NCBI GenBank assembly: GCA_963800795.1
Contig: CAWDCJ010000013.1
Location: 6,916 to 70,915 of the forward strand
DNA: 64,000 nucleotides
DNA from: an uncultured Chloroflexia bacterium
Lineage (GTDB): Bacteria; Chloroflexota; Limnocylindria; Limnocylindrales; CSP1-4
Reading direction: 5' to 3'
The notes beneath the pieces are model-generated. The model was not told the DNA's origin and did not search any database. It saw nothing but the letters and a program-made list of their open reading frames with translations. Within the stretch, counting starts at the first letter, position 1, and every line of letters begins with the position of its first letter. Made by a program: the position numbers and the translations under genes. Shown one piece after another: positions 29,403 through 60,763 of this stretch.

Positions 29403-30604
29403 CTGCCGGGCAGGGACCCGGGCGTCGCTCCGACGGCGTGACCACGCTGGGATATGCGAGCTTCATCCTCATCGGCTGGAGCGCGCTCCTCGTCCCGGCG
29501 CTCGTGCCCGCGATCGAGCGCGATTTCACCCAGTCCGATGCCGGCGTGGGCGTCCTCTACCTCGCATCGTCGCTCCTGTTCGTGCTCGGGTCGCTCGCCA
29601 GCGGGTACCTCATGGAGCGGCTCGGACGAGGCCTCGTCCTGCCGGCCGCGGTCCTCGCCCTGGGGGTGGGGCTCGGCGTGGAGTGCCTCGCGCCCAGCTG
29701 GGTGCTTTTCGTCCTCGGAGCCGGCATCAGCGGACTGGGGTCCGGGTCGGTCGAGGTCGGGGTGAACGGCCTGTTTCTCGACCGCTTTCACGAGGATCGC
29801 GGCCGTGCCATGAACCGTCTTCACCTCTGCTACAGCGTCGGGGCCCTGGCCGCGCCGCTGGCGGTGGGTGCGCTCGTGGAGGTGGGCGTTGCGTGGCGCG
29901 TGCCGTTCGCGGTGACCAGCGCCCTCGTGGTCGCCGTCGCCCTGCGGCTTGTCACCCGCGATCTCGGCACCCCCGGCGTCGCGTTGAGCGGCCCCTCGCT
30001 GCGCGGCCTGGGAGCCCGGCGCGTGCCGCTCCCCCTGGTCTTGCTGGCCCTGGCGATCGCCTGCTACGTTGCCTCCGAGAACGGCGTGTCCAGCTGGCTC
30101 GTTCGCTTCCTCAAGGATGCGCCCGTCGGCGTGTCGACGGCCGCCCTCTCCGTCTTCTGGGCAGGCCTCACGGGTGGAAGGATTGTCGCCAGTCGGTTTG
30201 CCGGCCGGTTCGCCCCGATCGCGGTCGCGACAGCCTGCGTGTTCGCGGCCGGGGTCGCCATCGTGACTGCTGTGGCGGTCCCGTGGGTCGGGGCATCAAT
30301 CGCCCTGTTCGGCGCCGCGGGATTCGCCTGCGGCCCGGTCTACCCGATGATCATGGCCTCGGCGGGCGGGCTCTACCCGGCGCGATCGAACGCGGTGAGC
30401 GGGATCCTCACCGCCGCGGCCGTGACCGGGTCGGTCGTCTACCCGCCCGTGATGGGATTCGTCTCGAACGGCGTCGGGCTCGGCGCCGGGATGGCCGGCG
30501 CAGGGCTGATCGCGTTCGCCTGCGCCGCCGCCCTGCTCGCGCTTCGCACGCTCGCACACGGATCCGGTACGCCGGCTGGCGCGCCGGCTCCGCATCGCGC
30601 GTAG
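29398..30604 (+). CDS. MFS transporter
   Basis: About 12 predicted TM helices. ATGA overlap with the preceding stop. Real part of track ORF 29072..30604 starts at MTAGQGPG. Confidence 0.75.
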
Positions 30605-30659: not shown

Positions 30660-30688
30660 TGTCAACACATGAGCAATAGGCTGCACAT

Positions 30689-31705
30689 TTGAGCATTGCG
30701 ATCGACCCCGTCGCTTCCGGGGGGTCGGCGGCCGCGCGCGCCGGTGAGCCACTCGCCGGGGAGACGCGGCTCATGCTTCGCGCAGCCCAGCTCTACTACC
30801 GGCTGAACCTCACCCAGGACCAGGTGGGGGAGCGGCTGGGCGTCAGCCGCTTCAAGGTCGGCCGGCTTCTCGACCGCGCCCTGCGCGAGTCGGCCGTCCG
30901 GATCGAGATCGTCCACCCGGCGGCGCGTTTCGTGGAGCTGGAGGATGCGCTCGCGAACCGGTTCGGGCTGCGCGGCGCCGTGGTCGTGGATGTGCCGGCC
31001 ACGGGTTCCTTGCCGGACGACGAGCTCCTCGCGCGCGAGCGCGTGGCCGAGGCCGGTGCCGCCCACCTCGCGTCGCTGCGGCCCGCTGGAGCCATCGGCG
31101 TCTCGTGGGGTCGCACCATGCTGGAGCTCGCCGCGCACCTGCGGCCCGGCTGGACCGCGGCCACGGAGATCGTCCAGCTCAACGGCGCCACGTCCCGTTC
31201 CACGTACCCGACGCGCGCCCACGAGATCGTGGAGCGGTTCGGGGCGACGAGCGGGGCCGCCCTGCGACTGATGCCTGCACCTGCGATCGTCGGCTCGCCA
31301 GAGCTGCGCGACGCGCTGGAGGATGATCCCTCGGTTGGCGAGACGCTGGCCGCCGCGCGCGAGGCTGGCACGGCGGTCTTCAGCATGGGCCTGATGGGTC
31401 CGGATAGCGTCCACGTGGCCTCGGGCTACCTCGGCGAGGCTGATCTGGCGGCGCTGGCCGATGCCGGCGCCGTGGGGGACGTCCTGGGGAGGTTCCTCTC
31501 CCGTGACGGTCGCATCGCCCTCCCATCGCTGGACCGGCGCACGATCGGGCTGCCGCTGGAGGATCTCCGGGAGAAGGCACTGACCGTCGGCCTGGCGGCC
31601 GGGCCCGGGCGGGGCCCGATCGCCCTGGCGGCCCTGCGGGCGGGGTGCATCACGGTGCTGGTGGCAGACGAGGCGACGGCCGCCTGGGTCCTTGAGCATG
31701 CCTGA
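30689..31705 (+). CDS. SorC/DeoR(Bsu)-family sugar-phosphate-binding transcriptional regulator
   Basis: N-terminal HTH LRAAQLYYRLNLTQDQVGERLGVSRFKVGRLL, then SorC sugar-binding domain (IGVSWGRT, VQLNG, GDVLGRF). Confidence 0.85.
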   Translation: MSIAIDPVASGGSAAARAGEPLAGETRLMLRAAQLYYRLNLTQDQVGERLGVSRFKVGRLLDRALRESAVRIEIVHPAARFVELEDALANRFGLRGAVVVDVPATGSLPDDELLARERVAEAGAAHLASLRPAGAIGVSWGRTMLELAAHLRPGWTAATEIVQLNGATSRSTYPTRAHEIVERFGATSGAALRLMPAPAIVGSPELRDALEDDPSVGETLAAAREAGTAVFSMGLMGPDSVHVASGYLGEADLAALADAGAVGDVLGRFLSRDGRIALPSLDRRTIGLPLEDLREKALTVGLAAGPGRGPIALAALRAGCITVLVADEATAAWVLEHA

Positions 31706-32360
31706 CCAGCGCCCGCGCGTGCAGGTGGATCCCGCGGCCCCGGCTGCCGGACTGTCGCCGGACGCGGTCCGGGAGGTGGTGCGCCGGATCGTTGACGCCA
31801 CCCTCGCCGGCGACGCGACTGCCACGCCCGTCGCCGCGGCCGCGACAAGCGTGGCGCAGGCATCCACCCCGGTCGCCCAGGAGGGCGTTGCGATCGCGAT
31901 CGGCGCCGACCACGGCGGGGCCGCGCTCAAGGACAGGATCGGCCAGGTGCTGGCGGAGTCCGGCTTCGCGGTCCAGGACTGTGGCACGCACGGGAGCACG
32001 CCCGTCGACTACCCTGACTTCGCCCATGCTGTCGCCCGCCTCGTGGCGGACGGGACCTGCCGCTGGGGCATCATCGTGGATGGCGCCGGGATCGGCTCGT
32101 GCATGGTCGCCAACAAGGTCCCGGGCGTCCGCGCCGCCCTCTGCCACGACCTTTCCTCCGCCCGCAACAGCCGCGAGCACAACCATGCCAACGTCCTGAC
32201 GCTGGGTGCCGGGTTCATCGGCGAAGCCCTCGCCATCGAGATCGTCCGGGCCTGGCTGGGGACTGCCTGGGGACCGGGCCGCCACGCAGCACGGGTCGAG
32301 AAGATCATGGACGTCGAGCGCCGTTACATGCGACCAGCCGGTGAGGGCCGAACAGGATGA
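31698..32360 (+). CDS. rpiB: ribose-5-phosphate isomerase B family enzyme with ~65-aa N-terminal extension
   Basis: Core [45 protein letters not shown]. The extension has the amphipathic helix [16 protein letters not shown] plus an Ala/Thr/Pro linker. Confidence 0.85.
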
Positions 32361-33254
32361 CCGAGACGAGCAGCCAACGCGACGACCTGGTGGAGGCGAT
32401 CACCCGGCAGGTGCTCGCGGCATTCGCCAACGGGGCGGGTGCAGGTGCCCAGGGCGCCGACGGTGACCCGTGCGCATCGTGCCGAGGGGCCTGCGCGGCC
32501 CAGTGCGCGACCAAGGTCCGCGACGTCGTGGCCGGCGGCGCGACGCGCGTCGATTATCACGGCCGCGCCGCCGACGTCCCCGCCGACCTCGCCCACTACA
32601 TCGACCACACGCTCCTGCGGCCCGACGCCTCCGCCGCGGACATCGACCGGCTCTGCGCGGAGGCGGCGGAGTACCGCTTCGCCGCGGTCTGCATCAACCC
32701 CACCTGGGTTCGCCGTGCGCGCGGACAACCTCCGCGGCACGGACGTCGTGGTGGCCTCGGTGATCGGCTTCCCGTTCGGGGCGGCGACGAGCGAGGTCAA
32801 GGCGCTCGAGGCGCGCCGGGCCATCCGCGACGGGGCCCGCGAGATCGACATGGTCATCAACATCGGGGCCCTCAAGAGCGGGATGCTCGACGCGGTCCGC
32901 GAGGACATCGCCCGGGTCTCGGATGCCTGCCACGAGGCTGGCGCGCTGAACAAGGTGATCATCGAGACGGCGCTCCTCAGCGACGAGGAGAAGGTGATCG
33001 CGTGTCAGCTCGCCAAGCAGGCGAAGGCGGACATGGTGAAGACGTCCACCGGGTACGCCTCGGGCGGGGCCACCGTGTTCGACGTCGCGCTGATGCGCGA
33101 GACGGTCGGGCCGAAGATGGGCGTCAAGGCGGCCGGCGGAATCCGCACCGCCCAGGACGTGCAGGACATGATCGCGGCCGGCGCGACCCGCATCGGGGCC
33201 TCGGCCGGCGTCAAGATCGTCACGGGAGAGAAGGGCGCGCATGGGCAATATTGA
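32357..33254 (+). CDS. deoC: deoxyribose-phosphate aldolase with ~65-aa N-terminal extension (frame break near 32706)
   Basis: [22 protein letters not shown] | [38 protein letters not shown] (Schiff-base Lys), VKAAGGIRT. Extension [15 protein letters not shown] plus [12 protein letters not shown]. Confidence 0.85.
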
Positions 33255-33871
33255 TCTTCGGGCGTACGTCTTCCTGGACAGCCTCCAGGCCCAGTACGCC
33301 GCGTTCCTCGGCACGGTCGCCCAGGGCTTCCTGCCGCTCGCCGGCGACGCCTCGCTCTCCATCGAGGTCTCGCCCGGGATCGAGATCAACCGGCTGACCG
33401 ACATCGCCCTCAAGACCACGTCCGTGAAGCCGGGCATGCAGATCATCGAGCGCTATTACGGCATGCTGGAGATCCACTCGCCGTCGCAGGCGGAGGTGCG
33501 GGCCGCGGGCGCCGCGATCCTCGCCGAGGTCGGGCGTGGCCGAGACGGACCGGATCAAGCCGCGCGTCCTGTCGAGCCAGATCATCCGCCGGATCGACGA
33601 CCACCAGGCCCAGCTCATCAACCGGACCCGGCATGGCCAGATGCTCATCCCTGGCCAGACGCTGTACGTGCTGGAGCTCGAGCCGGCCGCCTACGCCGCG
33701 CTGGCCGCCAACGAGGCGGAGAAGGCGGCCCACATCAACATCCTGGAGGTGCGGGCCTTCGGCTCCATGGGCCGCATCTACCTCGGAGGCGAGGAACGCG
33801 ACATCGACGTCGGCTGGCGCGCCGCGCTGGCCGCGATCGAGGGGCTCGAAGGACGCGAAGCAAAACCATAG
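33241..33871 (+). CDS. BMC-T shell protein, CcmP/CsoS1D-like tandem BMC domains (frame break near 33535)
   Basis: [56 protein letters not shown].. then ..[61 protein letters not shown]. Merges track ORFs 33241..33924 and 33536..33871. Confidence 0.75.
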
Positions 33872-33902: not shown

Positions 33903-34211
33903 ATGGCAGAAGCGCTCGGGATGATCGAGGCGCGCGGGTTCGCGGCGGTGGTCGAAGCCGCCGACGCGATGGTCAAGGCGGCCAAGGTCGAGCTCGTCAG
34001 CTACGAGAAGACGGGCGGCGGGTACGTGACGGCCGTGGTGCGGGGCGACGTCGCAGCGGTCAAGGCGGCGGTCGAAGCCGGCGTCCGGAATGCCGCCAAG
34101 GTCGGTGAGGTCGTCGCCAGCCACGTGATCGCCCGGCCGCACGTCAACGTGGACCTCGTGCTGCCGCTCGGGCGGCTGGACGAGGCGAAGGCGGAGTCGG
34201 GCCAGGGCTAG
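33903..34211 (+). CDS. BMC-H hexameric shell protein (PduA/EutM-like)
   Basis: [58 protein letters not shown] is near-canonical. Confidence 0.95.
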
Positions 34212-34272: not shown

Positions 34273-34560
34273 ATGCTTCTCGGACGCGTGACCGGGACCC
34301 TGGTGGCGAGCCGCAAGGAACCGCTCATGGAGGGCTGGACGCTCCTGGTGGTGCGCCAGCTGGATGCGGAGAACCACGAAGCCGGCGGGTATGTCGTGGC
34401 GGCCGACACGGTCGGGGCGGGCATCGGCGAGGTCGTCCTGTACGCCACCGGGAGCTCTGCCCGCCAGACCGAGACCACCCGGGACCGGCCCTGCGACGCC
34501 GTGATCATGGCGATCGTCGACACGTGGGAGATCGGCGGCCGGGAGGTCTACCGCAAGTAG
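34273..34560 (+). CDS. BMC-P pentameric vertex protein (EutN/CcmL family), copy 1
   Basis: [59 protein letters not shown]. Confidence 0.9.
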
Positions 34561-34572: not shown

Positions 34573-36036
34573 ATGAATGAGCTCGACGGACGCGAGATCG
34601 CCGACATCATCGAGCGGGTACGCCGCCGTGTCGCGGCCGCCGGCGGCGAGCGGCCGGGCGCCGGCCTCCGGGCAGAGGCGGAGCTCTCGGCCGCCGCGGC
34701 GGCGGAGCTGGGCGACGGCATCCACGCCACGATCGACCAGGCAGTGGCTGCCGCCGCGGAGGCCTTCCGCGCCTTCGAGGCCCAGGGCCTCGCCGGCCGG
34801 AAGGTGATCATCGACGCCGTGCGCGGGTCGATGCTGGACCACGCCGAGCAGCTGGCCCGCATGGCCCACCAGGAGACGCACCTCGGGCGGGTCGAGGACA
34901 AGGTCGTCAAGAACCGCCTCGTGGCATCCAAGGCTCCCGGGCCGGAGGACCTCGAGGTCCAGGCCGTCACGGGCGATGCCGGGATGATGGTCACCGAGTT
35001 CGCCCCGTTCGGGGTGGTGGCGGCGATCACCCCGGTGACCAACCCGACTTCGACGATCATCAACAACACGATCAGCATCGTTTCGGCCGGCAACGCCGTG
35101 GTCTTCAACGCGCATCCCGGCGCGCGGCGCTGCTCCGCTGAGACGATCCGCCTCATCAACCGGGCGATCGTCGGGGCCGGCGGCCCGCCGAACCTCGTGA
35201 CGGCCGTGGCGACCCCCACGATCGAGACTGCCCGGGCGCTCATGCGCCACCCCGACGTGCGCGTGCTCCTCGTGACCGGGGGTCCCGCTGTCGTGCGAGA
35301 GGCGCTCCGAACGGACAAGCGGGCGATCACCGCCGGGCCCGGGAACCCGCCCGCGGTCGTCGACCAGACCGCCGACATCGAACGGGCCGCGCGGGACATC
35401 GTTCGCGGCGCCTCGTTCGACAACAACCTCGTCTGCATCGACGAGAAGGTCGTCCTCGTCGTGGACTCCGTCGCCGACCGGCTGCTCCGGGCCATGACCC
35501 AGCACGGGGCGTACCTGCTCAAGGAGCACGAGCTGCGCCGGCTGGAGCGCGTCATCTTCACGGAGCTCGGCCAACCCGGCAGGCCGGGCGTGATGAACCC
35601 GGCCTGGATCGGGCGCGACGCGGCGAAGATCCTGGCGGAGATCGGTGTCCAGGCGGAGCCGGCGCCGCGCCTGCTCGTCGCCGACGTCCCGCGCGAGCAC
35701 AGCCTGGCCTGGACCGAGCAGATGATGCCGGTCCTCCCGGTCGTCCGGGTGGGGACGGTGGAGCAGGCGATCGACCTGGCGGTGCGGATGGAGCACGGCT
35801 TCCGCCACACGGCCTCCATCCATTCGACGAACGTCGAGACGATCACCCGGATGGCCCGGGCGATGAACTGCAGCATCTTCGTGACGAACGGGCCAAACGT
35901 CGCCGGCCTCGGCGAGGGGGGCGAGGGATTCACCTCGTTCTCCATCGCCAGCCCGTCCGGCGACGGGCTGACCAGGCCCCGCACCTTCTCGCGCGAACGG
36001 CGGATCACCGTCGTCGGCGCGCTGCGGATCGTCTGA
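34573..36036 (+). CDS. CoA-acylating aldehyde dehydrogenase (EutE/PduP-like) with N-terminal encapsulation-peptide-like helix
   Basis: FGVVAAITPVTNPTST, AGNAVVFNAHP, TAGPGNPPAVVD, FDNNLVCIDEK (catalytic Cys), HTASIHS. N-terminal REIADIIERVRRRV plus a Gly/Ala linker. Confidence 0.9.
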   Translation: MNELDGREIADIIERVRRRVAAAGGERPGAGLRAEAELSAAAAAELGDGIHATIDQAVAAAAEAFRAFEAQGLAGRKVIIDAVRGSMLDHAEQLARMAHQETHLGRVEDKVVKNRLVASKAPGPEDLEVQAVTGDAGMMVTEFAPFGVVAAITPVTNPTSTIINNTISIVSAGNAVVFNAHPGARRCSAETIRLINRAIVGAGGPPNLVTAVATPTIETARALMRHPDVRVLLVTGGPAVVREALRTDKRAITAGPGNPPAVVDQTADIERAARDIVRGASFDNNLVCIDEKVVLVVDSVADRLLRAMTQHGAYLLKEHELRRLERVIFTELGQPGRPGVMNPAWIGRDAAKILAEIGVQAEPAPRLLVADVPREHSLAWTEQMMPVLPVVRVGTVEQAIDLAVRMEHGFRHTASIHSTNVETITRMARAMNCSIFVTNGPNVAGLGEGGEGFTSFSIASPSGDGLTRPRTFSRERRITVVGALRIV

Positions 36037-36635
36037 TGGGAGACGCCCGGCCCGCGATCGAGCCCGCCCTCGCTCTCCTCGAGCTGGGCTCGATCGCCGC
36101 GGGCATCGAGGCCGGCGACGCGATGGCCAAGCGGGCCCCGATCGACGTGATCCGGGCCGGCACGGTCCACCCCGGCAAGTACCTGATCCTCGTTGCCGGC
36201 GCGGTCGCCGACGTGGAGGAGGCCGCTCGAGGCGGGTCGCGAGGTCGGAGCCTCCTGGGTGCTCGACGCCGTCCTCATCCCCAACGTCCGCCAGGACCTC
36301 GTCGCCGCCATCCGCGGCGAGCGCCGCGCCGCCTCGGGTGAGGCGCTCGGCATCATCGAGACCGGCACCGTCGCGGCGATCCTCGAGGCCGCCGACGCAG
36401 GGCTCAAGGGCGCCCGGGTCAGCCTCCTCGAGATCCGGCTCGCCGACGACCTCGGCGGCAAGGGCTACCTCCTGTTCGACGGGACGGTGGCCGACGTGGA
36501 GGCGGCGCGTGGAGATCGGCAGTGACCGGATCGGCGGGTCGCCCGGCCTCGCGTGGCGGGTGATCCCCCTGCTGCACGCGAGATGGCCCGCAACCTGGCC
36601 GCCGACGCCCGCTTCGCCGCGCGGATCCGGGAGTA
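36036..36635 (+). CDS. BMC-T shell protein, PduT-like fused tandem BMC-H domains (2-3 frame breaks)
   Basis: Domain 1 ALALLELGSIAAGIEAGDAMAKRAPIDVIRAGTVHPGKYLILVAGAVADVEEA. Domain 2 ALGIIETGTVAAILEAADAGLKGARVSLLEIRLADDLGGKGYLLFDGTVADVEAA. Own reading ends ..ARFAARIRE* at 36633-36635. Confidence 0.75.
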
Positions 36636-36642
36636 GGCCGCC

Positions 36643-36928
36643 GATGCAGCTGGCGCGCGTGATCGGGACGGTGGTCGCCACCGTGAAGTCGCCGGGCCTC
36701 GAGGGCGTGAAGCTGCTCGTGATCCAGCCGCTGGACCGGGCCTCACAGCCGATCGGGGGCCAGCTCGTGGCCGCGGACGCCATCCACATGGCGGGTCCGG
36801 GCGAGCTGGTCTACTTCGTCGCGGCACGCGAGGCCGCCCAGGCCATGCCCGACCCGTTCGTCCCGGTCGACCACGCCATCGTGGGGATCGTGGACGCGGT
36901 CGCGGCGCTCCGCGGGGCAACGCCGTGA
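36643..36928 (+). CDS. BMC-P pentameric vertex protein, copy 2
   Basis: MQLARVIGTVVATVKSPGLEGVKLLVIQPLD..LVAADAIHMAGPGELVYFVAAREA..HAIVGIVD. ATG 36643 inside track ORF 36338..36928. Confidence 0.85.
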
Positions 36929-37443
36929 AGATCGGCCGCGTCGTGGGGACCGTCGTGTCGACGATCAACGCCCCGGCCTTCGACGGCCGGACGCTCCTTC
37001 TCTGCGATCTCCTGGACCCGGCCGGGACGCCGGCCGGTGGGTACGTCATCGCGGTGGACTCGGTCGGGGCCGGGGCCGGCGAGACGGTCCTGATCCTTGA
37101 CGAGGGCAACTCCGCGCGCCAGGTCCTGGCAGCAGCCGGGGCTCCGATCCGGACGGTCGTGGTCGGCATCGTTGACGCGGTTGTCGAGTCCGCGTCCCCA
37201 GCCGCCTCCCGGGAGGCACAGGCGATCCTCAGCGGCGCGCGCAGCCCCCGGGACGGTGCGCCCGACACAGCGTGCGACCGGGCGACCGGCGCGCCGCGGC
37301 CCGCCCGGCCCGCCCGGCGCCTCGCCGTTGAACGCGACCGGCGAGGTCGGCGCCTCCCGCGTTCCGGGCACCATGGAAGGCGCCCCGACCGCGCTCCGGC
37401 AGCTCCTCGAGGATGCCGCCGCAGGTCGCTTCCCGCCCGCTGA
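36925..37443 (+). CDS. BMC-P pentameric vertex protein, copy 3 (3' end uncertain)
   Basis: GTG start in a GTGA overlap. MKIGRVVGTVVSTINAPAFDGRTLLLCDLLD..YVIAVDSVGAGAGETVLILDEGNSAR..VVVGIVD. Only the first ~90 codons look like the domain. The Arg/Pro-rich tail to 37443 overlaps the next gene and may be a frame artefact. Confidence 0.7.
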   Translation: MKIGRVVGTVVSTINAPAFDGRTLLLCDLLDPAGTPAGGYVIAVDSVGAGAGETVLILDEGNSARQVLAAAGAPIRTVVVGIVDAVVESASPAASREAQAILSGARSPRDGAPDTACDRATGAPRPARPARRLAVERDRRGRRLPRSGHHGRRPDRAPAAPRGCRRRSLPAR

Positions 37444-38044
37444 CGGCCGGACGCAGGTTCTCCCGGCGCCGGACGGTCCCGTCCACGCCGTCCTTTCCTT
37501 CACCGGTCACCACGTCATCGCGGCGGACGTCGACCCTGCCGAGGTGGCAGCCCACCTGGACCCCGACGACATCGCGGCGCCCATGGGCGCTCCCTTCCTG
37601 GCCTGGCTCGGCGAGCGCTTGGGCGCTGTGCCCGGGACGCTGGACGTGGTGCTGGCAGCCCGGGCCGGCGCAGGCGCCCCGCCCTTCCCTGACGAGCTCC
37701 GCGAGATCGCCCCGGACGTGGACCACCCGCGGCTGGCCCGCGCCTGTCGCTACCGCACGGATGTGCGCGCCTGGGAGTCGGGCAACGGCGACGGCCTCGT
37801 GATCGTCGGGCGCGGGCTTGCCGGCCGCTGGGAGGCGGCTTTCGAGGTCTCCGGACCGGCACGTGGCCGGGGCCTGGGCCGCACGTTGGCCGCAGTTACG
37901 ATGCTTGCCGTTCCGCGCGGCGAGCGCGTCTTCCTGCAGGTTGCGCCCGGGAACGCGGCCTCACTGCGGGCCGTGCTCGCGGCAGGCTTTCACCCAATCG
38001 GGGCAGAGGTCCTGTTCCTCAAGGACGGTCGGCCGCCCCGCTGA
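37373..38044 (+). CDS. GNAT-fold (acetyltransferase-like) protein, last gene of the microcompartment operon
   Basis: ARGRGLGRTLAAV resembles the acetyl-CoA-binding R/Q-x-x-G-x-G/A loop; ..ASLRAVLAAGFHPIG.. is a typical C-terminal GNAT strand. Confidence 0.5.
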   Translation: MEGAPTALRQLLEDAAAGRFPPADGRTQVLPAPDGPVHAVLSFTGHHVIAADVDPAEVAAHLDPDDIAAPMGAPFLAWLGERLGAVPGTLDVVLAARAGAGAPPFPDELREIAPDVDHPRLARACRYRTDVRAWESGNGDGLVIVGRGLAGRWEAAFEVSGPARGRGLGRTLAAVTMLAVPRGERVFLQVAPGNAASLRAVLAAGFHPIGAEVLFLKDGRPPR

Positions 38045-38417: not shown

Positions 38418-39749
38418 CTACCCGGTGATCCGCTCCAGCACGACGGGCATGGGAGCCGGCGGCTCGTCGCCGATCATGACCGCGGCACGAACCTCGCGCG
38501 CCGCGGCCTCGGCCTGGGCCTCGGAGCGCGCGTGCACGAGGCAGATGGGCCGGTCCGGGCCGACCGCGGCGCCGATCGGCGCGAACCGCGTGAGGCCCAC
38601 CGCGTGGTCGATCTGCTGGTCGGCGCGAACGCGCCCGCCGCCCAAGCCGACGATTGCGAGGCCGATGGCCCGCGTGTCCTCGGCGACGATGAACCCGCTC
38701 CGCTCCGGGCGGACGGGGAGCGTGACCTCGGGCAACGGCAGGTATACGTCCGGGCGCTCGAGCAGATCCGCGGGCCCGCCCAGCGCCGCGACCATCCGGG
38801 CGAAGCGATCGGCCGCCTCCCCGGACGCCAGGGCCAGCTCGCAGGCAGCCCGCGCCGCCGCCGCGTCTGCGAACAGGCCACCGGTCACGAGCAGCTCGGC
38901 GCACAGCGCCATCGTGACCTCGTGCTGGCGGGGTTCGCGAGCGCCTGGGCCGCCTTCGCCGGCCAGGTAGGCGATCGCCTCGCGCGTCTCGACGGCGTTT
39001 CCCGCCGTGTGCCCACGCACCTGGTTCATGTCCGTCAGGAGCGCGGTCGTCCGGCACCCGGCACCGTTGGCAACCGACACGATGCTCTCGGCCAGGGCGC
39101 GCCCGTCCTCGGCCGTGGTCATAAATGCGCCGCTGCCGAATGTCACGTCCTGTACCAGGCCGACAAGGCCAGCGGCCAGCTTCTTCGACAGGATGGACGA
39201 GGTGATGAGCGGGATGCTCTCGACGGTGGCGGTGACGTCCCGGATGGCGTACAGGCGCCGGTCGGCCGGCGCCAGGTCGGCAGTCGCGCCGATGATCGCG
39301 CAGCCGACCTCGCGGACGACCCGGCGGAAGGTGGCATTGTCGGGAACGCTCGTGTAGCCCGCGATCGCGTCCAGCTTGTCCAGGGTGCCGCCGGAGTGGC
39401 CCAGCCCCCGCCCCGAGATCATCGGGACCGCGCCGCCGCAGGCCGCCACGATCGGCGCCAGCATCAGCGATACGGTGTCGCCGACGCCGCCGGTGCTGTG
39501 CTTGTCGAGCGCCGGGCCGGGCAGGTCCGCGCGGGACCAGTCGAGGACCGTGCCGGAATCGCGCATGCCGTGGGTAAGGGCGATCACTTCCCGTCGCGTC
39601 ATCCCCCGGACCAGCACGGCCATCGCGAAGGCCGCCACCTGCCCCTCGCTGATCGAGCAGTCCGTGATGCCGGCCACGAAGAACGCGATCTCCTGGTCCG
39701 TGAGGGCGCGGCCATCGCGTTTCGCTCGGATGACTTCCTGCGGAAGCAT
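38418..39749 (-). CDS. deoA: thymidine/pyrimidine-nucleoside phosphorylase
   Basis: [52 protein letters not shown]. Confidence 0.95.
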
Positions 39750-39752
39750 CCG

Positions 39753-40622
39753 CTAGTCCCCCGACGCTGGCTGGGCCGCGAACGAGCCGGCGAAGGCCCG
39801 GACCAGGCGCGTGAGGTCCGCCGCGGCGATCGCGGCACCCCGAAGCGTCTGGGCATGGTCGACCGGCACCGCGCTCATGCCCACCGCGAGATTGGTGATC
39901 GCGCTGATCGCCGCGACCCGGAGCCCGGCGTGGCGCGCGACGATCACTTCGGGCACGGTGGACATGCCGACCGCGTCCGCACCGAGGGCGCGGTAGGCGC
40001 GGATCTCCGCGGGCGTCTCGAAGATCGGGCCGAGGAGCGCGCAGTAGACGCCCTCGTGGAGGTGGATGCCGAGCCCTGCCGCAAGCCCCAGCAGCCGGCT
40101 GCGGAGTGCCGGGTCGTAGGCGTCCTCGAGGCCAGTGAACCGCTCGCCCCAGGCGTCGTCGTTCGGTCCGACGAGAGGGTTCGTTCCCATGAGGTTGAGG
40201 TGATCGGTGATCAGCATCAGGCTGCCCGGCCCTGCCTCTGCACGCAGTGAGCCGGCTGCGTTCGTCAGCAGGAGCGCCTCGACGCCGAGCGCGGCGAACG
40301 TCCGGATCGGGAGCCGGATCACCGCAGGAGGGAGGCCCTCGTAGAGATGGAAGCGGCCCTGCATGCAGGCGACCGTGGTGCCGTCGAGCTCGCCGATCAG
40401 GAACCGGCCGGCGTGGCCCGCCACGGTCGATGTCGGGAAGCCCGGGATCTCGGCGTACGGGACGGCGACCGCCGCATCGAGGATATCGGCGAGCCCGCCG
40501 AGGCCTGATCCCAGCACGATGCCCAGGCGTGGAGTGCGTCCTCCCGCCCGTTCCCGGAGCAGCGCCGCGATTGCGACGGGATCGCCGGGGAGGTGGGCGT
40601 CGCCGGCGCCGCGGGGGCTCAT
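39753..40622 (-). CDS. punA: purine nucleoside phosphorylase (trimeric PNP family)
   Basis: GIVLGSGLGG, FPTSTVAGHAG, QGRFHLYEG, LTNAAG, GPIFETPAE, GADAVGMSTVPE. ATGA overlap with the cdd stop. Real part of track ORF 39753..40877. Confidence 0.9.
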   Translation of the reverse strand: MSPRGAGDAHLPGDPVAIAALLRERAGGRTPRLGIVLGSGLGGLADILDAAVAVPYAEIPGFPTSTVAGHAGRFLIGELDGTTVACMQGRFHLYEGLPPAVIRLPIRTFAALGVEALLLTNAAGSLRAEAGPGSLMLITDHLNLMGTNPLVGPNDDAWGERFTGLEDAYDPALRSRLLGLAAGLGIHLHEGVYCALLGPIFETPAEIRAYRALGADAVGMSTVPEVIVARHAGLRVAAISAITNLAVGMSAVPVDHAQTLRGAAIAAADLTRLVRAFAGSFAAQPASGD

Positions 40623-41044
40623 CGCGGGGTCTCCTTGAGCAGGAACTCGGGTCCGAAGCTGAGCGGGAGCAGCTCGCCGAGCGTCACGCTGCGGATGACC
40701 CCACCCGGCCCGGCAAGGTGGACAAGCCCGTCGAGCGGCATGAACTCGCGGAGCCGCTGTCGGCATGCGCCGCACGGGGTGGGGAGCCCGGACGCAGGAT
40801 CGGCGACGACGAGGGCCTCGACGATTCGACGACCGCCCGCGGCGATCAGCATGCCGATCGCGGACGCCTCCGCGCACTGGCCCTGGGGGTAGGCGGCGTT
40901 CTCCACGTTCGGCGCAGCGTGGACCCGGCCGAGCTCGTCGCGCAGCGCCGCGCCCACGGCGTAGCCCGAGTACGGCGAGTAGGTCCGCTCCCGCGCCGCG
41001 AGCGCGGCGGCGAGGAGGTCATCCGGCGAGCCGGCGGTTGGCAT
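40619..41044 (-). CDS. cdd: cytidine deaminase
   Basis: YSPYSGYAVGAAL, zinc motifs CAEASAI and PCGACRQ. Confidence 0.9.
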   Translation of the reverse strand: MPTAGSPDDLLAAALAARERTYSPYSGYAVGAALRDELGRVHAAPNVENAAYPQGQCAEASAIGMLIAAGGRRIVEALVVADPASGLPTPCGACRQRLREFMPLDGLVHLAGPGGVIRSVTLGELLPLSFGPEFLLKETPR

Positions 41045-41120
41045 CGGGTCGGGCCTCCGTCATTGCGCTGGTGGGCCGGTGCGCACCGTGCCTCGAACGC
41101 CCGGATGCGTGGACATTCCT

Positions 41121-41149
41121 TTGACCGTCCAGCCTCGAATGTGTATAGT
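41121..41149 (+). promoter_or_regulatory. sigma-70-type promoter of initiator tRNA
   Basis: TTGACC (41121-41126), 17-nt spacer, TATAGT (41144-41149). The tRNA 5' end follows 6 nt later. Confidence 0.7.
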
Positions 41150-41154
41150 ACCGG

Positions 41155-41229
41155 GGCGGGGTGGAGCAGCGGCAGCTCGTCGGGCTCATAACCCGAAGGT
41201 CAAGGGTTCGAATCCCTTCCCCGCAACCA
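41155..41229 (+). tRNA. initiator tRNA-Met (anticodon CAT), CCA encoded
   Basis: GGCGGGGTGGAGCAGCGGCAGCTCGTCGGGCTCATAACCCGAAGGTCAAGGGTTCGAATCCCTTCCCCGCAACCA. Three G:C pairs close the anticodon stem, and position 1:72 is unpaired (G:A); both are initiator hallmarks. Confidence 0.9.
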
Positions 41230-41401: not shown

Positions 41402-42938
41402 ATGACACAGGTTGGTGAGCCACGCGTGGAAGCCCGTGCGGCTCTGGAGCGGGTGAACCACTGGATCGGTGGAGCGCGCGTGGCCGGGACCTCGGGGCGC
41501 TTCGGGCCCGTCTACGACCCCGCCATCGGAGCCGTCGCCCGGACGGTGGACTTCGCGTCGGTCGAGGAGGTCGACGCAGCGGTCGCGTCAGCGCGCCGCG
41601 GCCTTCCCGGCGTGGCGTGCCACCTCGCTCTCGAAGCGCACGGAGATCCTGTTCCGGGTCCGCAACCTCGTCGAGGCGCACCGGACGGAGCTCGCGGCGC
41701 ACCTGACGGCGGAGCACGGCAAGGTCACCTCGGATGCGCTCGGTGAGATCGCGCGCGGCCTGGAGAACCTGGAGTTCGCCTGCGGCATCCCCACGCTCAT
41801 CAAGGGCGGCTTCTCCGAGCAGGCCTCCACCGGCGTGGACGTCTACCAGATCCGCCAGCCGCTCGGCGTGGTCGCGGGGATCACGCCGTTCAACTTCCCG
41901 GCCATGGTCCCGATGTGGATGTTCGGCAACGCGATCGCCTGCGGCAACACGTTCATCCTGAAACCGTCGGAGAAGGACCCATCCGCAGCCATGCTCATGG
42001 CCGAGCTGCTCGCGGAGGCGGGCGTGCCGGCGGGCGTCTTCAACGTGGTCCAGGGCGACAGGGTGGCGGTGGACCGGCTCCTGGAGCACCCCGCCATCGC
42101 CGCGGTCAGCTTCGTCGGCAGCACGCCGATCGCGCGGCACATCTACGAGACCGCCACGAAGAACGGCAAGCGCGTCCAGGCGCTGGGCGGGGCGAAGAAC
42201 CACATGCTGGTCCTGCCGGACGCGGACATCGACATGGCCGCCGACGCCGCGGTCTCGGCCGGGTACGGTTCCGCGGGCGAGCGCTGCATGGCGATCGCGA
42301 CCATCGTCGCGGTGGGCGACGTCGCGGACCCGCTCGTCGAGGCGATCCGCGCCCGGCTGCCCAGGGTCACCGTGGGCCCCGGCACCGATCCCGCGTCGCA
42401 GATGGGCCCGCTCGTCACGCGCCAGCACATGGAGAAGGTCGCTTCCTACCTCGAGTCGGCTCCGGCGCAGGGCGCCACCCTCGTCGCGGATGGACGCGAG
42501 CACCCGCTCCATCGCGCCGGCGATGGCTTCTTCCTGGGCGCCAGCCTGATCGACCACGTCGACACGGGCATGGACTGCTACCGCGACGAGATCTTCGGCC
42601 CGGTCCTCACGGTGATCCGGGTTCGGACCTACGAGGAAGGGGTCCGGCTCATCAACGCGAACCCGTACGGCAACGGGGCCGCGATCTTCACCCGCGACGG
42701 AGGCGCCGCGCGGCAGTTCCAGTTCGAGGTCAACGCCGGGATGGTCGGCATCAACGTGCCGATCCCGGTCCCGGTCGCCTATTACAGCTTCGGCGGCTGG
42801 AAGGCCTCCCTGTTCGGCGATCTCCACATGTACGGGCCGGAGGGGATCCAGTTCTACACCCGGGCGAAGGTGGTCACCTCGCGCTGGCCGGACCCGGGTA
42901 CCTCCTCGGTCGACCTGGGCTTTCCCCGCACGCGGTAG
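41402..42938 (+). CDS. mmsA: CoA-acylating methylmalonate-semialdehyde dehydrogenase (frame break near 41590)
   Basis: HWIGG.., GITPFNFPAMVPMWMF, FILKPSEKDP, FVGSTP, GGAKNH, GERCMA, RDEIFGPVL, YSFGGWKASLFGD. N-terminus MTQVGEP (ATG 41402) lies in a different frame from track ORF 41469..42938. Confidence 0.9.
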
Positions 42939-45510: not shown

Positions 45511-45888
45511 CTACTTGACCGTCAGGGTGCCGACCATGTTCGGATGGACGGAGCAGACGAAGGTGTACGTGCCGGCCGGCAGGGCCGGCACGTCATAGGT
45601 CCGGGCCCCGGTCCCGGTGAAGATCTCGCCCTTGAAGACCTCCGTGCCGGTGGCCGAGCCCGCATGGATCGAGACGTTGTGGGGGATCCCCGCGTCGTTG
45701 TTCGTGAAGTCGATCTGGAAGGGCGTGTTGGCGGGCGCCGAGAGGTCGGTCTTGTCGTAGGCGATCCCGCTCGCGGTGAGCTGGAGCGCGACCGCGGCGC
45801 CGGGCGCTGCGCTCGCCGCCGGCGATCCGGCCGCCGGCGCCGGATCCGGCCGCCGCGCTTGCCGCGGGTGCCGCGGACGGGGAGGGCG
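45511..45888. repeat. copy 1 of a ~380-bp duplicated block (cupredoxin module + linker)
   Basis: 45511-45839 matches 49247-49575 base for base except one position (45595 A vs 49331 G). A further ~50 nt are similar, with a 7-nt indel. Confidence 0.9.
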
Positions 45889-49246: not shown

Positions 49247-49631
49247 CTACTTGACCGTCAGGGTGCCGACCATGTTCGGATGGACGGAGCAGACGAAGGT
49301 GTACGTGCCGGCCGGCAGGGCCGGCACGTCGTAGGTCCGGGCCCCGGTCCCGGTGAAGATCTCGCCCTTGAAGACCTCCGTGCCGGTGGCCGAGCCCGCA
49401 TGGATCGAGACGTTGTGGGGGATCCCCGCGTCGTTGTTCGTGAAGTCGATCTGGAAGGGCGTGTTGGCGGGCGCCGAGAGGTCGGTCTTGTCGTAGGCGA
49501 TCCCGCTCGCGGTGAGCTGGAGCGCGACCGCGGCGCCGGGCGCTGCGCTCGCCGCCGGCGATCCGGCCGCCGGCGACGGCCGCCCGATCCGGCCGCCGCG
49601 CTCGCCGCGGGTGCCGCGGACGGGGAGGGCG
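49247..49631. repeat. copy 2 of the ~380-bp duplicated block
   Basis: See copy 1 (45511-45888). Confidence 0.9.
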
Positions 49632-54161: not shown

Positions 54162-55085
54162 TCAGGCTGGCGGCCAGCCCCCGAGCTGCGCGAGGGTCGG
54201 CGGGTCGGCGCCCGGGCGCTCGCAGACCATCGCGGAGGCGCGGACGGCGAACCGGACCGCGCGCAGGACGGCCGCCGGCTCCGCGACGGCCTCGCGCCCG
54301 CCCCCGCCCGCGAGCAGGCACGCGAGGAACGCGCCGCCGAACGTGTCCCCCGCCCCGACGGTGTCGACGACCGTGACCGCTGGCGCCTCCACCTCGGACA
54401 CGGCGCCGTCGATCCACGCCCGCACCGGCCGGGCGCCATCCGTGATCAGCACGACCCGCGGCCCGAGCGCCGCCACGCGCCGCGCCGCCTCGTCGGCAGA
54501 CTCGCCGGGCACGAGGAACGCCAGGTCCTCGGTGCTCACCTTCACGACGTCGGCCCGCGCGAGCACGCGGCAGATCCGCGCCCGGAACCCGTCGGGATCG
54601 CGGATGATCGAAGGTCGGCAGTTGGGATCGACCATCAGCAGCACGTCGTCCGGGAGTGCCGCGACGAGCGCCTCGAATGTCGTGGCCATCGGCTCGAGCA
54701 CGAGGCCGAGTGTCCCGACGTGGACCGCCCGGGTGGACCCCGGAAGCCCGGCGGCGAGCGCCTCGGCCGTCACGGCGGGCGCGGACGTGCTGTCCACGTA
54801 GAACCGGTAGGTCGCCGCGCCGCCGTCGTCGAGCTCGGCGACGGCGAGCGTCGTCGGCAGGTCGGTACGCCTGGCGAGCGCGAGCGAGACCCCGTCGTCC
54901 GCGAGCCCATCCTCGAGCACCCGCCCGAAGTGGTCGCGCGACAACCCGCCGAGCCATGCCACCTCGACCCCGAGGCGCCCGATGGCGCGCGCCGTGTTGT
55001 ACGGCCCCCCGCCGGCCACGGGGACCAGCTGGCCGTCCGGGCGCACGATGAGATCGATCAGGGCCTCACCGGCAACGACGATCAC
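54162..55085 (-). CDS. PfkB-family carbohydrate kinase (fructokinase-like)
   Basis: GGGPYNTA, DPNCRP, and the C-terminal DTVGAGDTFGGAFL signature. Confidence 0.85.
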   Translation of the reverse strand: MIVVAGEALIDLIVRPDGQLVPVAGGGPYNTARAIGRLGVEVAWLGGLSRDHFGRVLEDGLADDGVSLALARRTDLPTTLAVAELDDGGAATYRFYVDSTSAPAVTAEALAAGLPGSTRAVHVGTLGLVLEPMATTFEALVAALPDDVLLMVDPNCRPSIIRDPDGFRARICRVLARADVVKVSTEDLAFLVPGESADEAARRVAALGPRVVLITDGARPVRAWIDGAVSEVEAPAVTVVDTVGAGDTFGGAFLACLLAGGGGREAVAEPAAVLRAVRFAVRASAMVCERPGADPPTLAQLGGWPPA

Positions 55086-55562
55086 GGCTCGCTCCTGATC
55101 TCCGGTCGCGTGGCGGACGGTCTTCCCGCGGAGTGGCGGTGAACGCCCGGCAGGCAGACGCCGATCGTCAGCAGGAGGTTGGCGTAGATCCGCTCATCGC
55201 CCGTCGAGACCGCGAGGGCGACGTCCCGGCCACGCGCCATGTCGTAGAAGTCCCGGCGCCCATGGGGCTGGAGCTCGATGCCGGGCAGCAGCGCCCGGAA
55301 GTCGGCGAAGATGCCCGGCTCCTCCCCGCTGTCCGGGGCCATCACGTCCGCCGCCTCGATCGGGATGCTGTCGACCAGCACCTCCAGCACGTCGGTGCAC
55401 CGTGACCATGCCCGGAGCCAGGTTCAGGTAGACCCGCCTCGCGGTGGCGCTCGACCGGGTCAGCAGCGGGTAGTTGCCGTCGGCGATGAGCACCTGGGCG
55501 CCGTGGCCTGCCTCGCCGAGGGCCGCCAGGATCTCCGGGTGAAGGAGGCGGGTCTTCAGCAT
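55082..55562 (-). CDS. RbsD/FucU-family sugar mutarotase/pyranase (frame break near 55395)
   Basis: MLKTRLLHPEILAALGEAGHGAQVLIADGNYP.. then ..IYANLLLTIGV, as in RbsD/FucU. Confidence 0.7.
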
Positions 55563-55991
55563 CGGGTGTTCCTCTCGCGCGGTCTGGTGGATCGGATGCC
55601 TGCCGTGGCCACCGATTGCTTCGGCCGGTGTCGGGCGGCGATGCAGAGTGCCAGCGTCCCCTCTGGATGTCCGAATGTCCGAGGTGAGCCCGACCGCCAC
55701 CACGCCTCGAGCCGGGACGAGCGGCGCGACGTGCGTCCTCCCGCGGGCACCGACGACCGCCGGGGCCTCCGACCGACGGGGCCTCCGACCGCCATCGCGG
55801 TCCGCCCCGGGCGCGTCGCTCATGGCGGGTAGGCCCGCGCCGGAAGCGGCTCGAGAGGCAGTGCGACCGGTCAGCCGGATCTGCCCGGCTGTGACCGTGC
55901 GGCGGCTGGGTCGGGCCCGCGTGACGGGAGGAGGGGTCGTCACGCGGGCCGTTGTGTAGTCGCGACGTGAAGCCGCGCAGCCGTCGCCGGC

Positions 55992-56683
55992 TCACGGCGT
56001 GCCTGCTGTCTGGCCTCGTGTCGTCGCGCCGGGCACGGGCTCCTCCATCACATCGGCGATCGCCGACGCCAGGACGGGGTCGACCTCGATGGCGGCCGTC
56101 GTGGTCGCACCCGCCACGGCTGCCGTCCGGAACGCCGCCCTGGCCGCCTCCACGACTGGCGGGTGGCATCGTCGACCGAGGTGGAACCGGTGTCGACAGT
56201 CAGCCCGTACCCGGCCGGCTCATCGGAATGGCGGTTGTAGAAACGGGAGACGAACTTGTGATGCCCGATGTCGTCCTCGTGCAGCTGTTCCTCGGCGGCT
56301 GCGGCATCGGTCAGGCCCTGGCTGGCCATGATCCGCTGGACCCGCTGCGCCATCGGCGCGACGACGTGCACGTTCAGCGCGTCGGCGTAGCCGCCCAGGA
56401 CCGCGAAACCGACCCGGCTCAGGATCACCACCTTGCCGCGCCTGGCGAGCGCCTCCAGGATCTCGTTGTACATCGAGATGATGAGGAGGTTCTCGACGCG
56501 CACGAGGTCGAGGAGGCTGGGCCCCGAGTCGTACAGCTCCTTGAACTTGGTCAGCCCGTACTGGCGGAGGATGCGATCGGACGTGTGCTCGTCGACGAGC
56601 GCGTAGCCCAGCTCCGCCGCCACGCGACCGGCGATCTCGACGCCGCCGGTCCCGAGCTCGCTCGAGATGGTGATGACACCCAT
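55992..56683 (-). CDS. cytidylate-kinase-like family P-loop protein (frame break near 56160; 3' end inferred)
   Basis: MGVITISSELGTGGVEIAGRVAAELGYALVD... The C-terminal helix VVEAARAAFRTAAV reads in another frame, ending at TGA 55992-55994. Confidence 0.55.
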
Positions 56684-56708
56684 GGTGAGCGCTCCCGTCG
56701 GATCCACG

Positions 56709-58219
56709 TCATGCACCCGCGGATCCGACCGCGTACTGCATGATGGTCTCTTCGCTGGCCTCGGCTCGTGACAGCTCCTTCACGATCCGACCCTGGCGCA
56801 TGACCATGATCCGGTCGCTCATGCCCAGCACTTCGGGCAGCTCCGACGAGATCATGATGATCCCGACGCCCTGCTTGGTCAGCTCGTCCATGATCTGGTA
56901 GATCTCGGACTTGCTGCCGACGTCGATGCCGCGCGTCGGCTCGTCCATGCAGGAAGATCCGGGTGCCCACGCTGAGCCAGCGCGCCAGCACGACCTTCTG
57001 CTGGTTGCCGCCGCTCATGTTGACGACCAGGAAGCTTGGAGCTCGGCGTCTTGATGCGCAATTCCTGGATCATTCGCTTGACGAGGGTCAGCTCCTTCCC
57101 GAAGTTGATCACGCCCAGGCGCGTCAGCCGTCTCAGGCCGGAGATCGTGGTGTTGATCCGGACGCTCAGCTGGAGGAACAGCCCCTGGGCCTTGCGGTCC
57201 TCGGTGACCAGGGCCACGCCGTTGCGGATGGCCGCGGCCGGCGAGTGCGGCTTGTACGGCTTGCCGGCGATGCGCATCTCGCCGCTGGACGGGTCCGCGC
57301 CGAAGATGGCGCGCGCCAGCTCCGTCCGCCCCGATCCCACGATGCCCGCGAACCCGACGATCTCGCCGGCGTGGAGCTGGAACGAGATGTCCCGCAGGAG
57401 CTTCGGCTGCGAGAGGTCGCCCACCTCGAGGAGGACGTCGCCCTGCTCGACGGTCCGCTTCGGGTACACGTCCTTCAGGTCGCGCCCGATCATGAGCTTG
57501 ACCAGGTCGTCCATCGTCACCTCGGAAACCTTCCGCGTGGCGACGTAGCGCCCGTCCTTGAGGATCGTCACCTCGTCGGCCAGCGCGAAGATCTCCCTCA
57601 GGCGGTGGGAGATGTAGATGATCCCGATGCCCTGGGCCTGGAGCGACCGGACCACCCGGAACAGGTTGTCCAGGTCCTTCTCCCCGAGCAGGGCGGACGG
57701 CTCGTCCATGATCAGGATGCGGGTCTTCCGGTTGAGGGCCTTGGCGATCTCGACGAGCTGCTGCTCGGCGACGGACAGCGACGAGATCGGGGCATCGACC
57801 GAGAACTCGACACCCAGCGTGTCGAGGATCTCGCGCGTCCGGGCCTTGACCGTCGTCCAGTCCACGGTCACCCCCTTCGTGGGCAGGTGGCCGAGGAAGA
57901 CGTTCTCGGCGACGGTGAGGTCGCGGGCGAGGTTGAACTCCTGGTAGATGGTCGAGATGCCCAGCGCCTGGGCGTCGTGCGGGCCGCGGATCTCGACGGG
58001 CTGTCCCTCGAACAGGATCTGCCCCTCGTCCATGCGGTAGGCGCCCGAGAGGATCTTGATCAGCGTCGACTTGCCGGCGCCGTTCTCGCCGAGGAGGGCG
58101 TGGACCTGGCCCTCCTTGACCGTCAGCTGGACGCCTTCCAGCGCCCGGACGCCGGGGAACGTCTTCCCGATGCCCTGCATCTCCAGCAGGACGTTGCCCG
58201 GGGAGGTGGAACCACTCAT
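56709..58219 (-). CDS. sugar ABC transporter ATP-binding protein, duplicated ATPase (RbsA/MglA type; frame breaks near 57020 and 56955)
   Basis: [19 protein letters not shown], second half [35 protein letters not shown]. Confidence 0.9.
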
Positions 58220-58240
58220 CGCGACATGCCTCCCGACTCG

Positions 58241-59237: not shown

Positions 59238-59303
59238 GGGCCATCCTCCCGACGAGAGGGCGGCGGCGGGGCAGCGCCCCGCCGCCAGCCAGTCAGATCG
59301 ACC

Positions 59304-60348: not shown

Positions 60349-60749
60349 CGAACTGCTCCTCCGTCTATCTAGGTACCTGAGCCTGGCAATGTGCTGGCGG
60401 AGCCCGCCTCCGGTTCCGCCTCGATGGACGATGGTGGTCGCCATTCGTCGATCCGCGAGCCGCTCCCTCCGGTCCGTCGTGGCTCCGCGAACGCAACGCG
60501 CGGTCGCCCGCGTCAGCTCGATCGCGACGGATGGCCGGATGGCGCGACGGCACCGGAGACCACCGGCACGTTGCGGCCTGCCTTCCCGGGGACCCCCGTG
60601 GCCCCCGGAAGGATCACGACGCCCGATGGTGTCGTCGTCGGCGGCGCTTCGTCACCCGTGAGACGGGCCTCCCGGCCGTCCGCCGGTCGTCCTGGCAGGA
60701 GCTCGACACCGTTGTGTGGCCGCTGCCTCCTTTCCCCCGCCGGGACGAC

Positions 60750-60763
60750 TGACAACGTTGTCA
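60750..60763. promoter_or_regulatory. LacI-family operator, perfect palindrome
   Basis: TGACAACGTTGTCA, between the sugar-uptake operon and the divergent lacI-family gene. Confidence 0.7.

Follow-up and report, generated by a model that had tools for sequence, protein, structure and literature searches.

What feeds a bacterial microcompartment (BMC) that is built around a deoxyribose-phosphate aldolase? We consider this question for a 64,000-nt stretch of DNA from an uncultured Chloroflexia bacterium (the window, by which we mean this whole stretch), in which an operon for nucleoside breakdown, cdd-punA-deoA, converges on a microcompartment locus that carries the aldolase gene deoC. The original prediction took this arrangement to point to deoxynucleosides or DNA as the physiological feed of the compartment. 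In favor of this idea are a true deoC, a DeoR-like regulator, the same adjacency in 22 other loci, a second arrangement of nucleoside genes at related loci, and operons of similar content in bacteria without shell genes; against it are the confinement to one clade, the lack of a shared operator and the lack of a local mutase. With moderate confidence, we favor a deo pathway that is split between cytosolic phosphorylases, an unlinked mutase, and DeoC and an aldehyde dehydrogenase (AldDH) inside the shell. The phosphorylases would act outside the shell to make sugar-1-phosphates, an unlinked phosphopentomutase would convert the 1-phosphate into the 5-phosphate, and the compartment would handle the step that generates an aldehyde. 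For this to hold, the phosphorylases would actually have to supply the compartment, and the mutase would have to be encoded elsewhere in the genome.

The three genes of the nucleoside operon are all intact, and each scores above the equivalog cut-off of its NCBIfam model (Table 1). The window has a G+C content of about 72%, so that reading frames were picked by their third-position GC. The translated cdd shows the zinc motifs CAE and PCGACR, the NF006054 match spans residues 18-278 of the 289 of PunA, and DeoA, a predicted thymidine phosphorylase by its family score, contains the three Pfam domains Glycos_trans_3N, Glycos_transf_3 and PYNP_C. The cdd stop codon overlaps the punA start codon in an ATGA (40619-40622), and the punA stop codon TAG is followed, after 3 nt, by the ATG of deoA; the reading frames, the overlap and the gap are all as they were originally described. 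These junctions are conserved: the cdd/punA overlap is ATGA or GTGA in 21 of 21 related loci, and the punA-deoA gap measures 2-4 nt in 17 of 19. The three genes therefore form one operon, translationally coupled and devoted to cytosolic nucleoside phosphorolysis. Cdd converts (deoxy)cytidine into (deoxy)uridine, DeoA splits thymidine and deoxyuridine into the base together with 2-deoxyribose-1-phosphate; PunA splits (deoxy)inosine and (deoxy)guanosine into the base and a sugar-1-phosphate.

On the opposite strand, the compartment locus is, judged from its sequence, complete and of the Sugar Phosphate Utilizing (SPU) subtype 6 (SPU6), and it matches the description in Supplementary Data 2 of PMC8217296. 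It combines a DeoC-type aldolase (pfam01791), an adjacent member of the RpiB family (pfam02502) and an AldDH in a Chloroflexi host, with a shell set of three EutN_CcmL genes, one BMC-H and a CcmP-like double-stacking BMC-T (Tdp). It differs from the published SPU6 type in having a second, tandem-domain BMC-T; in addition, the type includes a EutQ-like protein of ~130 aa without a Pfam match, whereas the third BMC-P of L001, 134 aa long, carries a EutN domain. The published descriptions (PMC8217296, PMC11585597) mention no DeoR-like regulator gene as the first of the locus, and no nucleoside phosphorylase or deaminase genes next to it; the window locus has both. L001 is the closest relative (DNA 94.2% identical to the window, AldDH 99% identical), and its intact copies of deoC and rpiB were used for the family tests. 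The deoC of L001 is a true one (TIGR00126, 273.5 bits against a cut-off of 117.3), and its rpiB passes TIGR01120 with 141.9 bits against 138.65.

The regulator provides a further connection to deoxyribose phosphates. Its best match in the PDB is the DeoR of Bacillus subtilis (8r7y, E 5e-39), which outranks LsrR, SorC and CggR, and the Bacillus-type DeoR model NF053881 remains its best family, although the score of 210.2 bits does not reach the cut-off of 420. Where DeoR has a QLKGG segment, the aligned window regulator reads QLNGA; the effector-binding lysine of DeoR, which may lie in this segment, forms a Schiff base with deoxyribose-5-phosphate. The likeness to the dra-nupC-pdp/DeoR system of B. 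subtilis includes a SorC-family regulator, with a helix-turn-helix and a sugar-binding domain, at a deoxyribose-phosphate aldolase locus; the solved structures of DeoR are 8r7y and 4oqp. The phosphorylase of B. subtilis reportedly lies inside the DeoR-regulated dra-nupC-pdp operon, whereas the phosphorylase operon of the window lacks the apparent operator of the regulator gene, and the NCBIfam DeoR model stays below its cut-off here.

One may first wonder whether the compartment is functional at all. In the window, deoC and the two BMC-T genes are each spread over more than one frame, as is the tail of the third BMC-P, and with at least four compartment genes broken, the locus could be decaying, with DeoC and BMC-T as pseudogenes and an adjacency devoid of present function. 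We hold this to be very unlikely. In an alignment of the window with L001, single-base insertions fall exactly at the breaks (32719, 33532, 36223 and 36507), and the third BMC-P shows indels at 37206-37296. In all, many single-base indels are found against L001 between 25702 and 45839 (e.g. 25702, 26955, 27651, 32719, 33532, 36223, 36507, 41593 and 43234); they are for the most part insertions in GCGC-type contexts, and they break the frames of compartment genes and unrelated genes alike, the latter including two ATP-binding cassette (ABC) exporter genes and a methylmalonate-semialdehyde dehydrogenase gene. A ribose-type ABC ATPase gene has similar indels. The compartment genes are intact in all the relatives, and L001 and many of the related loci come from metagenome-assembled genomes (MAGs) with contigs of hundreds of kb to several Mb, which we take to be long-read assemblies. 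We therefore rejected pseudogenisation: the frameshifts look like systematic long-read assembly errors, whose source is perhaps a methylated motif.

The adjacency of the two units was followed in two surveys. The first covered 80 species-level genome loci around relatives of the AldDH, with 10-kb flanks each, scored by tblastn with the window proteins; 66 of the 80 had sufficient flanking sequence to be informative. The AldDH homologues of the same length and 82-93% identity come from Limnocylindrales MAGs, the closest compartment loci belong to MAGs labelled Chloroflexota or Ca. Limnocylindria, and the distant ones (AldDH identity 69-74%) are labelled Acidimicrobiia or Acidobacteriota. In 22 of the 66 informative loci, deoA-punA-cdd lies downstream in the same convergent orientation; all of these have an AldDH identity of at least 87% and belong to one Limnocylindria clade. 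The second survey searched metagenome contigs with the window deoA and considered relatives of at least 75% identity: the gene adjoins compartment genes in 8 of the 8 contigs with informative flanks, while two contigs with just 2.5-3.3 kb of flank show none and 30 more are too short to judge. The adjacency is conserved in relatives in both surveys; among the genome loci it is confined to that clade, in parts of which it has been lost again.

A second arrangement is found in three loci (L021, L026 and L041) that branch inside the first group in the AldDH tree and differ from it on both flanks. Upstream of the regulator gene, these loci carry genes for an ABC ATPase, for two permeases (BPD_transp_2) and for a uridine-phosphorylase-like protein, along with cdd and punA. 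Their cdd and punA are only 40-47% identical to the window copies and are therefore not orthologues of them. The same ABC family heads a shell-less nucleoside operon in another locus (L126), which suggests that the ABC genes of the three loci encode a nucleoside importer. Downstream, they have a second deoC, which encodes 260 aa and lacks the N-terminal extension, as well as a purine-biosynthesis operon. As side observations on these loci (L021, 1-21458; also L026 and L041), an RCC1-repeat gene lies on the side of the second deoC, the purine operon reads purA-purD-purB-purC-purS-purQ-purL, and the regulator gene is immediately preceded by a gene for a single-stranded DNA-binding protein that runs on the other strand.

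More distant lineages show the same enzymes without any compartment: deoA and punA are on the same strand as a plain deoC and an aldehyde dehydrogenase, with no shell genes, and deoB directly follows deoA in 13 of these shell-less loci. In L126, the operon reads ABC importer-punA-deoC-AldDH-deoA-deoB-add, and the named enzymes all score above their cut-offs. Since such operons bring together phosphorylases, DeoC and AldDH, these form a recurrent functional module, of which DeoC and AldDH would be the encapsulated half in the Limnocylindria clade. The enzyme families, and with them phosphorolysis, the deoxyribose-phosphate aldolase reaction and aldehyde oxidation, are those of the classical deo operons represented by L126. 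In contrast, the aldolase and AldDH genes of the window are with shell genes on the opposite strand, in a transcription unit of their own, the neighborhood lacks deoB, and cdd is inside the phosphorylase operon. Aldolase, phosphorylases and phosphopentomutase are therefore not co-transcribed here as they are in a classical deo operon. That of Escherichia coli is said to be deoCABD.

Several observations weigh against a feed by the nucleoside operon, and they concern conservation, control and the step between the two units. As regards conservation, 41 informative loci have no nucleoside operon in reach; in representatives examined by inspection, their flanks hold genes for a P-type ATPase, an S9 peptidase, Dps, arginine deiminase, citrate synthase and others, none of them nucleoside-related. 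On a neighbor-joining tree of the AldDH, a large clade appears to have had the downstream state ancestrally, with at least 5 losses since. Between the last BMC-P and deoA there are 860 to 6479 nt, and in many loci unrelated genes for a Kelch-serpin fusion, a YceI-like protein or a nitrilase-family CN_hydrolase are found there; the inserts also include an unknown gene of 152 aa and an additional gene resembling BMC-T. Moreover, cdd and the tRNA-Met gene beside it are kept together in relatives as a conserved block, which in at least 7 related loci is followed by a methylmalonate-semialdehyde dehydrogenase gene, so that the operon may belong to a different neighborhood. Cdd and PunA also use ribonucleosides, and base salvage alone could account for the operon.

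Among the inserted genes, the Kelch-repeat-serpin fusion of L006 (14753-17185, 810 aa) is confirmed by Pfam and has equivalents in L010, L013, L015, L017 and L019, several of similar size. The YceI-like gene and the extra BMC-T-like gene, which is of ~222 aa and has no Pfam match, also lie between the compartment locus and deoA.

The control of the two units also speaks for separateness. They are convergent and therefore not co-transcribed, and no intrinsic terminator was detected between them. A conserved direct repeat, AACACATGAGCA-N6-TGCACATTTGAGCA, precedes the regulator gene in at least 36 loci and is the sole site of the window to score at least 60% of the matrix maximum; this makes it a candidate autoregulatory operator. 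Weight-matrix scans found no such repeat upstream of cdd in 23 loci, and an operator shared by both units was therefore discarded as a candidate. There is no computational support for it, although this is a weak negative, the repeat being itself a putative binding site. The cdd leader has a different conserved element of its own, GTCCACGCATCCGGGCGT, found exactly or nearly so at the same position in ~20 related loci, and the compartment operon is without it. Most likely, then, the nucleoside operon and the compartment locus are separate transcription units under separate control.

All this could be accounted for by an inherited neighborhood without functional coupling, in which a salvage unit at the tRNA-Met gene, and often at the methylmalonate-semialdehyde dehydrogenase gene as well, had the compartment locus inserted beside it once, and the adjacency is now eroding. 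The restriction to one clade, the repeated losses, the variable spacing with its unrelated inserts, the convergent units without a common operator, the absence of deoB nearby and the solidarity of cdd with the tRNA-Met gene would all be expected of it. Two observations argue in the other direction. The arrangement of L021, L026 and L041 is a second, independent juxtaposition, with non-orthologous cdd-punA, a putative importer and an extra deoC; by a rough estimate without formal test, the chance of two nucleoside contexts among about twelve is ~0.007-0.02, taking 1-2% as the chance for each context. In addition, the same families share operons with deoC and AldDH in the shell-less bacteria. 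We thus regard mere inheritance as a real but rather unlikely explanation, and the split pathway as the better supported one.

The split pathway requires that sugar-1-phosphates reach DeoC through a mutase, and here the evidence is again unfavorable. With E. coli DeoB as probe, tblastn found no DeoB in the whole window (best E 0.37) nor in any of the 80 loci with their 10-kb flanks, while the same probe finds deoB in the 13 shell-less loci; the probe was validated, being 100% identical to its database entry and matching the phosphopentomutases of the PDB at E 1e-103. A Pfam scan of most of the window's open reading frames (ORFs) yielded neither a Metalloenzyme domain (DeoB) nor a PGM-type mutase. 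In a search of a large protein database with DeoB, the matches listed were all from Enterobacterales, which is uninformative on Limnocylindria. The products of the operon had also been said to be one mutase step away from the substrates of DeoC and RpiB. The deoC gene is indeed a true one; as to RpiB, the RpiB-like protein has an Asp at the position of the catalytic Cys (VDGAG against ICGTG, aligned to 3he8 and 3ph3), and we take the Cys of the CGTG motif to be the active-site residue of RpiB. The RpiB-like protein of SPU6 was found to have little or no isomerase activity and possibly a role in cargo packaging (PMC11585597). Since the Asp agrees with this low activity, the RpiB substrates are a weak argument for the feed.

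Without a local mutase, one can imagine that the compartment is fed otherwise, by free deoxyribose or another pentose together with a kinase, or by a different sugar phosphate, the nucleoside operon only recycling bases. The claim that neither deoB nor a nucleoside transporter is recognisable in the window was right as to deoB, and left unmentioned a cluster at ~54.2-61.9 kb for ribose-type ABC uptake that also encodes a RbsD/FucU protein and a PfkB kinase. This cluster could be an alternative entry route for pentoses, and the role of the RpiB-like protein, unexplained in PMC11585597, also leaves room for another substrate. However, the PfkB kinase is far below all cut-offs (it does best as a fructokinase, 141 against 450), the Peripla_BP_4 binding protein resembles RbsB weakly, the cluster is 13-20 kb away, and the DeoR-like regulator and the true deoC as signature enzyme also weigh against it. 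We consider this other feed improbable. Still more speculatively, the compartment might take in deoxyribose-1-phosphate itself, the 1,5-mutase step being carried out by one of its own components such as the RpiB-like protein. This would explain the absence of deoB near these loci, but mutase chemistry on an RpiB fold would be unprecedented, and we give the idea hardly any credence. An unlinked phosphopentomutase thus remains the step that we would place between the cytosolic phosphorylases and the encapsulated DeoC.

Table 1. Positions of the features discussed, counted from the first letter of the window, with the scores or remarks that support them.
Feature	Position	Strand	Score or remark
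MFS (major facilitator superfamily) transporter just upstream of the regulator gene	29438-30604	+	Pfam MFS_1 98 bits
Operator-like direct repeat AACACATGAGCA-N6-TGCACATTTGAGCA	30664-30695	+	After a promoter-like TTGACA/TAnnnT pair and before the start codon of the regulator
SorC-family regulator, Bacillus-type DeoR-like	30689-31705	+	Pfam Sugar-bind 171 bits
RpiB-like protein with N-terminal extension	31692-32360	+	Pfam LacAB_rpiB 172 bits; directly upstream of DeoC
DeoC/DERA deoxyribose-phosphate aldolase with ~77-aa N-terminal extension, signature enzyme	32357-33254	+	Pfam DeoC on fragment; frame broken at 32719
CcmP-like double-stacking BMC-T (BMC-Tdp)	33241-33871	+	L001 copy against CcmP 5lsr E 1e-86; frame broken at 33532
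BMC-H shell protein	33903-34211	+	Pfam BMC 102 bits
BMC-P shell protein 1	34273-34560	+	Pfam EutN_CcmL 101 bits
Compartment-type AldDH, intact, 487 aa	34573-36036	+	Pfam Aldedh; among shell genes
Tandem-domain BMC-T	36036-36637	+	Two BMC matches in two frames; breaks at 36223 and 36507; L001 copy intact, 199 aa
BMC-P shell protein 2	36644-36928	+	Pfam EutN_CcmL 88 bits
BMC-P shell protein 3, tail frame-shifted	36925-37331	+	Pfam EutN_CcmL 83 bits; L001 model 134 aa
238-aa ORF, last gene of the plus-strand operon	37328-38044	+	No Pfam match
deoA, thymidine phosphorylase (predicted), 443 aa	38418-39749	-	TIGR02643 653.4 bits against 570.7
punA, inosine/guanosine-type purine nucleoside phosphorylase, 289 aa	39753-40622	-	NF006054 358.1 bits against 218
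cdd, tetrameric-type cytidine deaminase, 141 aa	40619-41044	-	TIGR01354 116.2 bits (cut-off 113.65)
Conserved 18-nt element GTCCACGCATCCGGGCGT in the cdd leader, beside the tRNA-Met promoter	41097-41114	-	~20 related loci
tRNA-Met (CAT)	41155-41229	+	ARAGORN, Rfam; divergent from cdd
CoA-acylating methylmalonate-semialdehyde dehydrogenase, beyond the tRNA	41469-42938	+	Pfam Aldedh 438 bits
Ribose-type sugar uptake cluster	54162-61868		PfkB kinase, RbsD/FucU (frame-shifted), cytidylate-kinase-like protein, ABC ATPase, BPD_transp_2 permease, Peripla_BP_4 binding protein, LacI-type regulator

The borders of the compartment locus call for some precision. The nucleoside operon was said to end about 370 nt from the last microcompartment gene, on the opposite strand. 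The strand and the distance are correct (373 nt from the deoA stop at 38418 to the facing stop at 38044), but the facing gene is the 238-aa ORF and not a shell gene; the third BMC-P ends at ~37331, and the last shell gene is thus ~1.1 kb away. This ORF is found in just 6 related genome loci, those of the closest relatives, and has no relative in Pfam or the PDB apart from a faint GNAT-like match (E 0.28). At the other end, an MFS gene does precede the regulator. All its NCBIfam matches are far below cut-off, it is kept only in the closest relatives, the others carrying efflux-type MFS genes there, and it was discarded as a carrier of nucleosides or sugar phosphates for want of an assignable family.

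On the upstream side of cdd, a promoter-like site of the tRNA-Met gene lies at 41121-41149, and the adjacent GTCCACGCATCCGGGCGT element could be the promoter or operator of cdd or an upstream element of the tRNA promoter. A search of the cdd leader with Rfam gave no riboswitch or known RNA element. In one sub-clade (L006, L007, L009, L010 and L012-L014), the leader has, ~60-110 nt upstream of cdd, a conserved sequence of ~50 nt that follows a TACAGT box (GAGGGCCCTCGTCGGGCCGATGCGCCGCGAGCGAACCGGGAGC); it has no match in Rfam and could represent either a short ORF upstream of cdd or a structure in the leader. The methylmalonate-semialdehyde dehydrogenase beyond the tRNA is well supported in L001 (TIGR01722, 675 against 448.5). 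Methylmalonate semialdehyde is an intermediate of both reductive thymine catabolism and valine catabolism, so that a link of this enzyme to the thymine released by DeoA is conceivable.

Elsewhere in the window, a thiamine pyrophosphate (TPP) riboswitch (3324-3429, minus strand; Rfam RF00059, 62.1 bits against 54.3) lies upstream of a thiamine cluster (~6-3364), in which ThiD is identified by Pfam and ThiL, ThiE and ThiM were recognised by eye. A perfect direct repeat of 300 nt (45511-45810 and 49247-49546, 3736 nt apart) flanks genes for subunits of cytochrome oxidase and encodes a cupredoxin-like domain in each copy; it could be a recent duplication, a gene conversion or an assembly artefact.

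The idea that SPU compartments process deoxyribose-5-phosphate derived from DNA was put forward by Axen et al. 2014 (PMC4207490), Sutter et al. 2021 (PMC8217296) and Dwyer et al. 2024 (PMC11585597), the last of whom cite deoB for the conversion that starts from the 1-phosphate. For SPU-type compartments of archaea, those of Hodarchaeales, a preprint of 2025 (PMC12747264) draws the full chain genome-wide, from deoxynucleoside through phosphorylase, deoxyribose-1-phosphate and mutase to deoxyribose-5-phosphate. Its proposed order of phosphorylase, mutase and encapsulated DeoC and AldDH is like the one that we favor; it differs in that the archaeal genes are scattered and include a uridine phosphorylase, while the phosphorylases of the window adjoin the compartment locus and the mutase is not located. 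The feed idea is therefore not new, having been published explicitly in that preprint. None of these four works mentions nucleoside phosphorylase or deaminase genes beside a compartment locus, and only the gene adjacency appears to be undescribed so far.

SPU compartments are among the commonest bacterial microcompartments, and no in vivo work has yet shown their physiological substrate. The concept is left unchanged by our analysis, as the enzymes, the compartment type and the hypothesis were all known before. The adjacency, in its two arrangements, nevertheless brings modest comparative support to the published hypothesis of deoxyribose phosphates derived from DNA or deoxynucleosides, and it suggests thymidine, deoxycytidine and deoxyinosine as candidate inducers.

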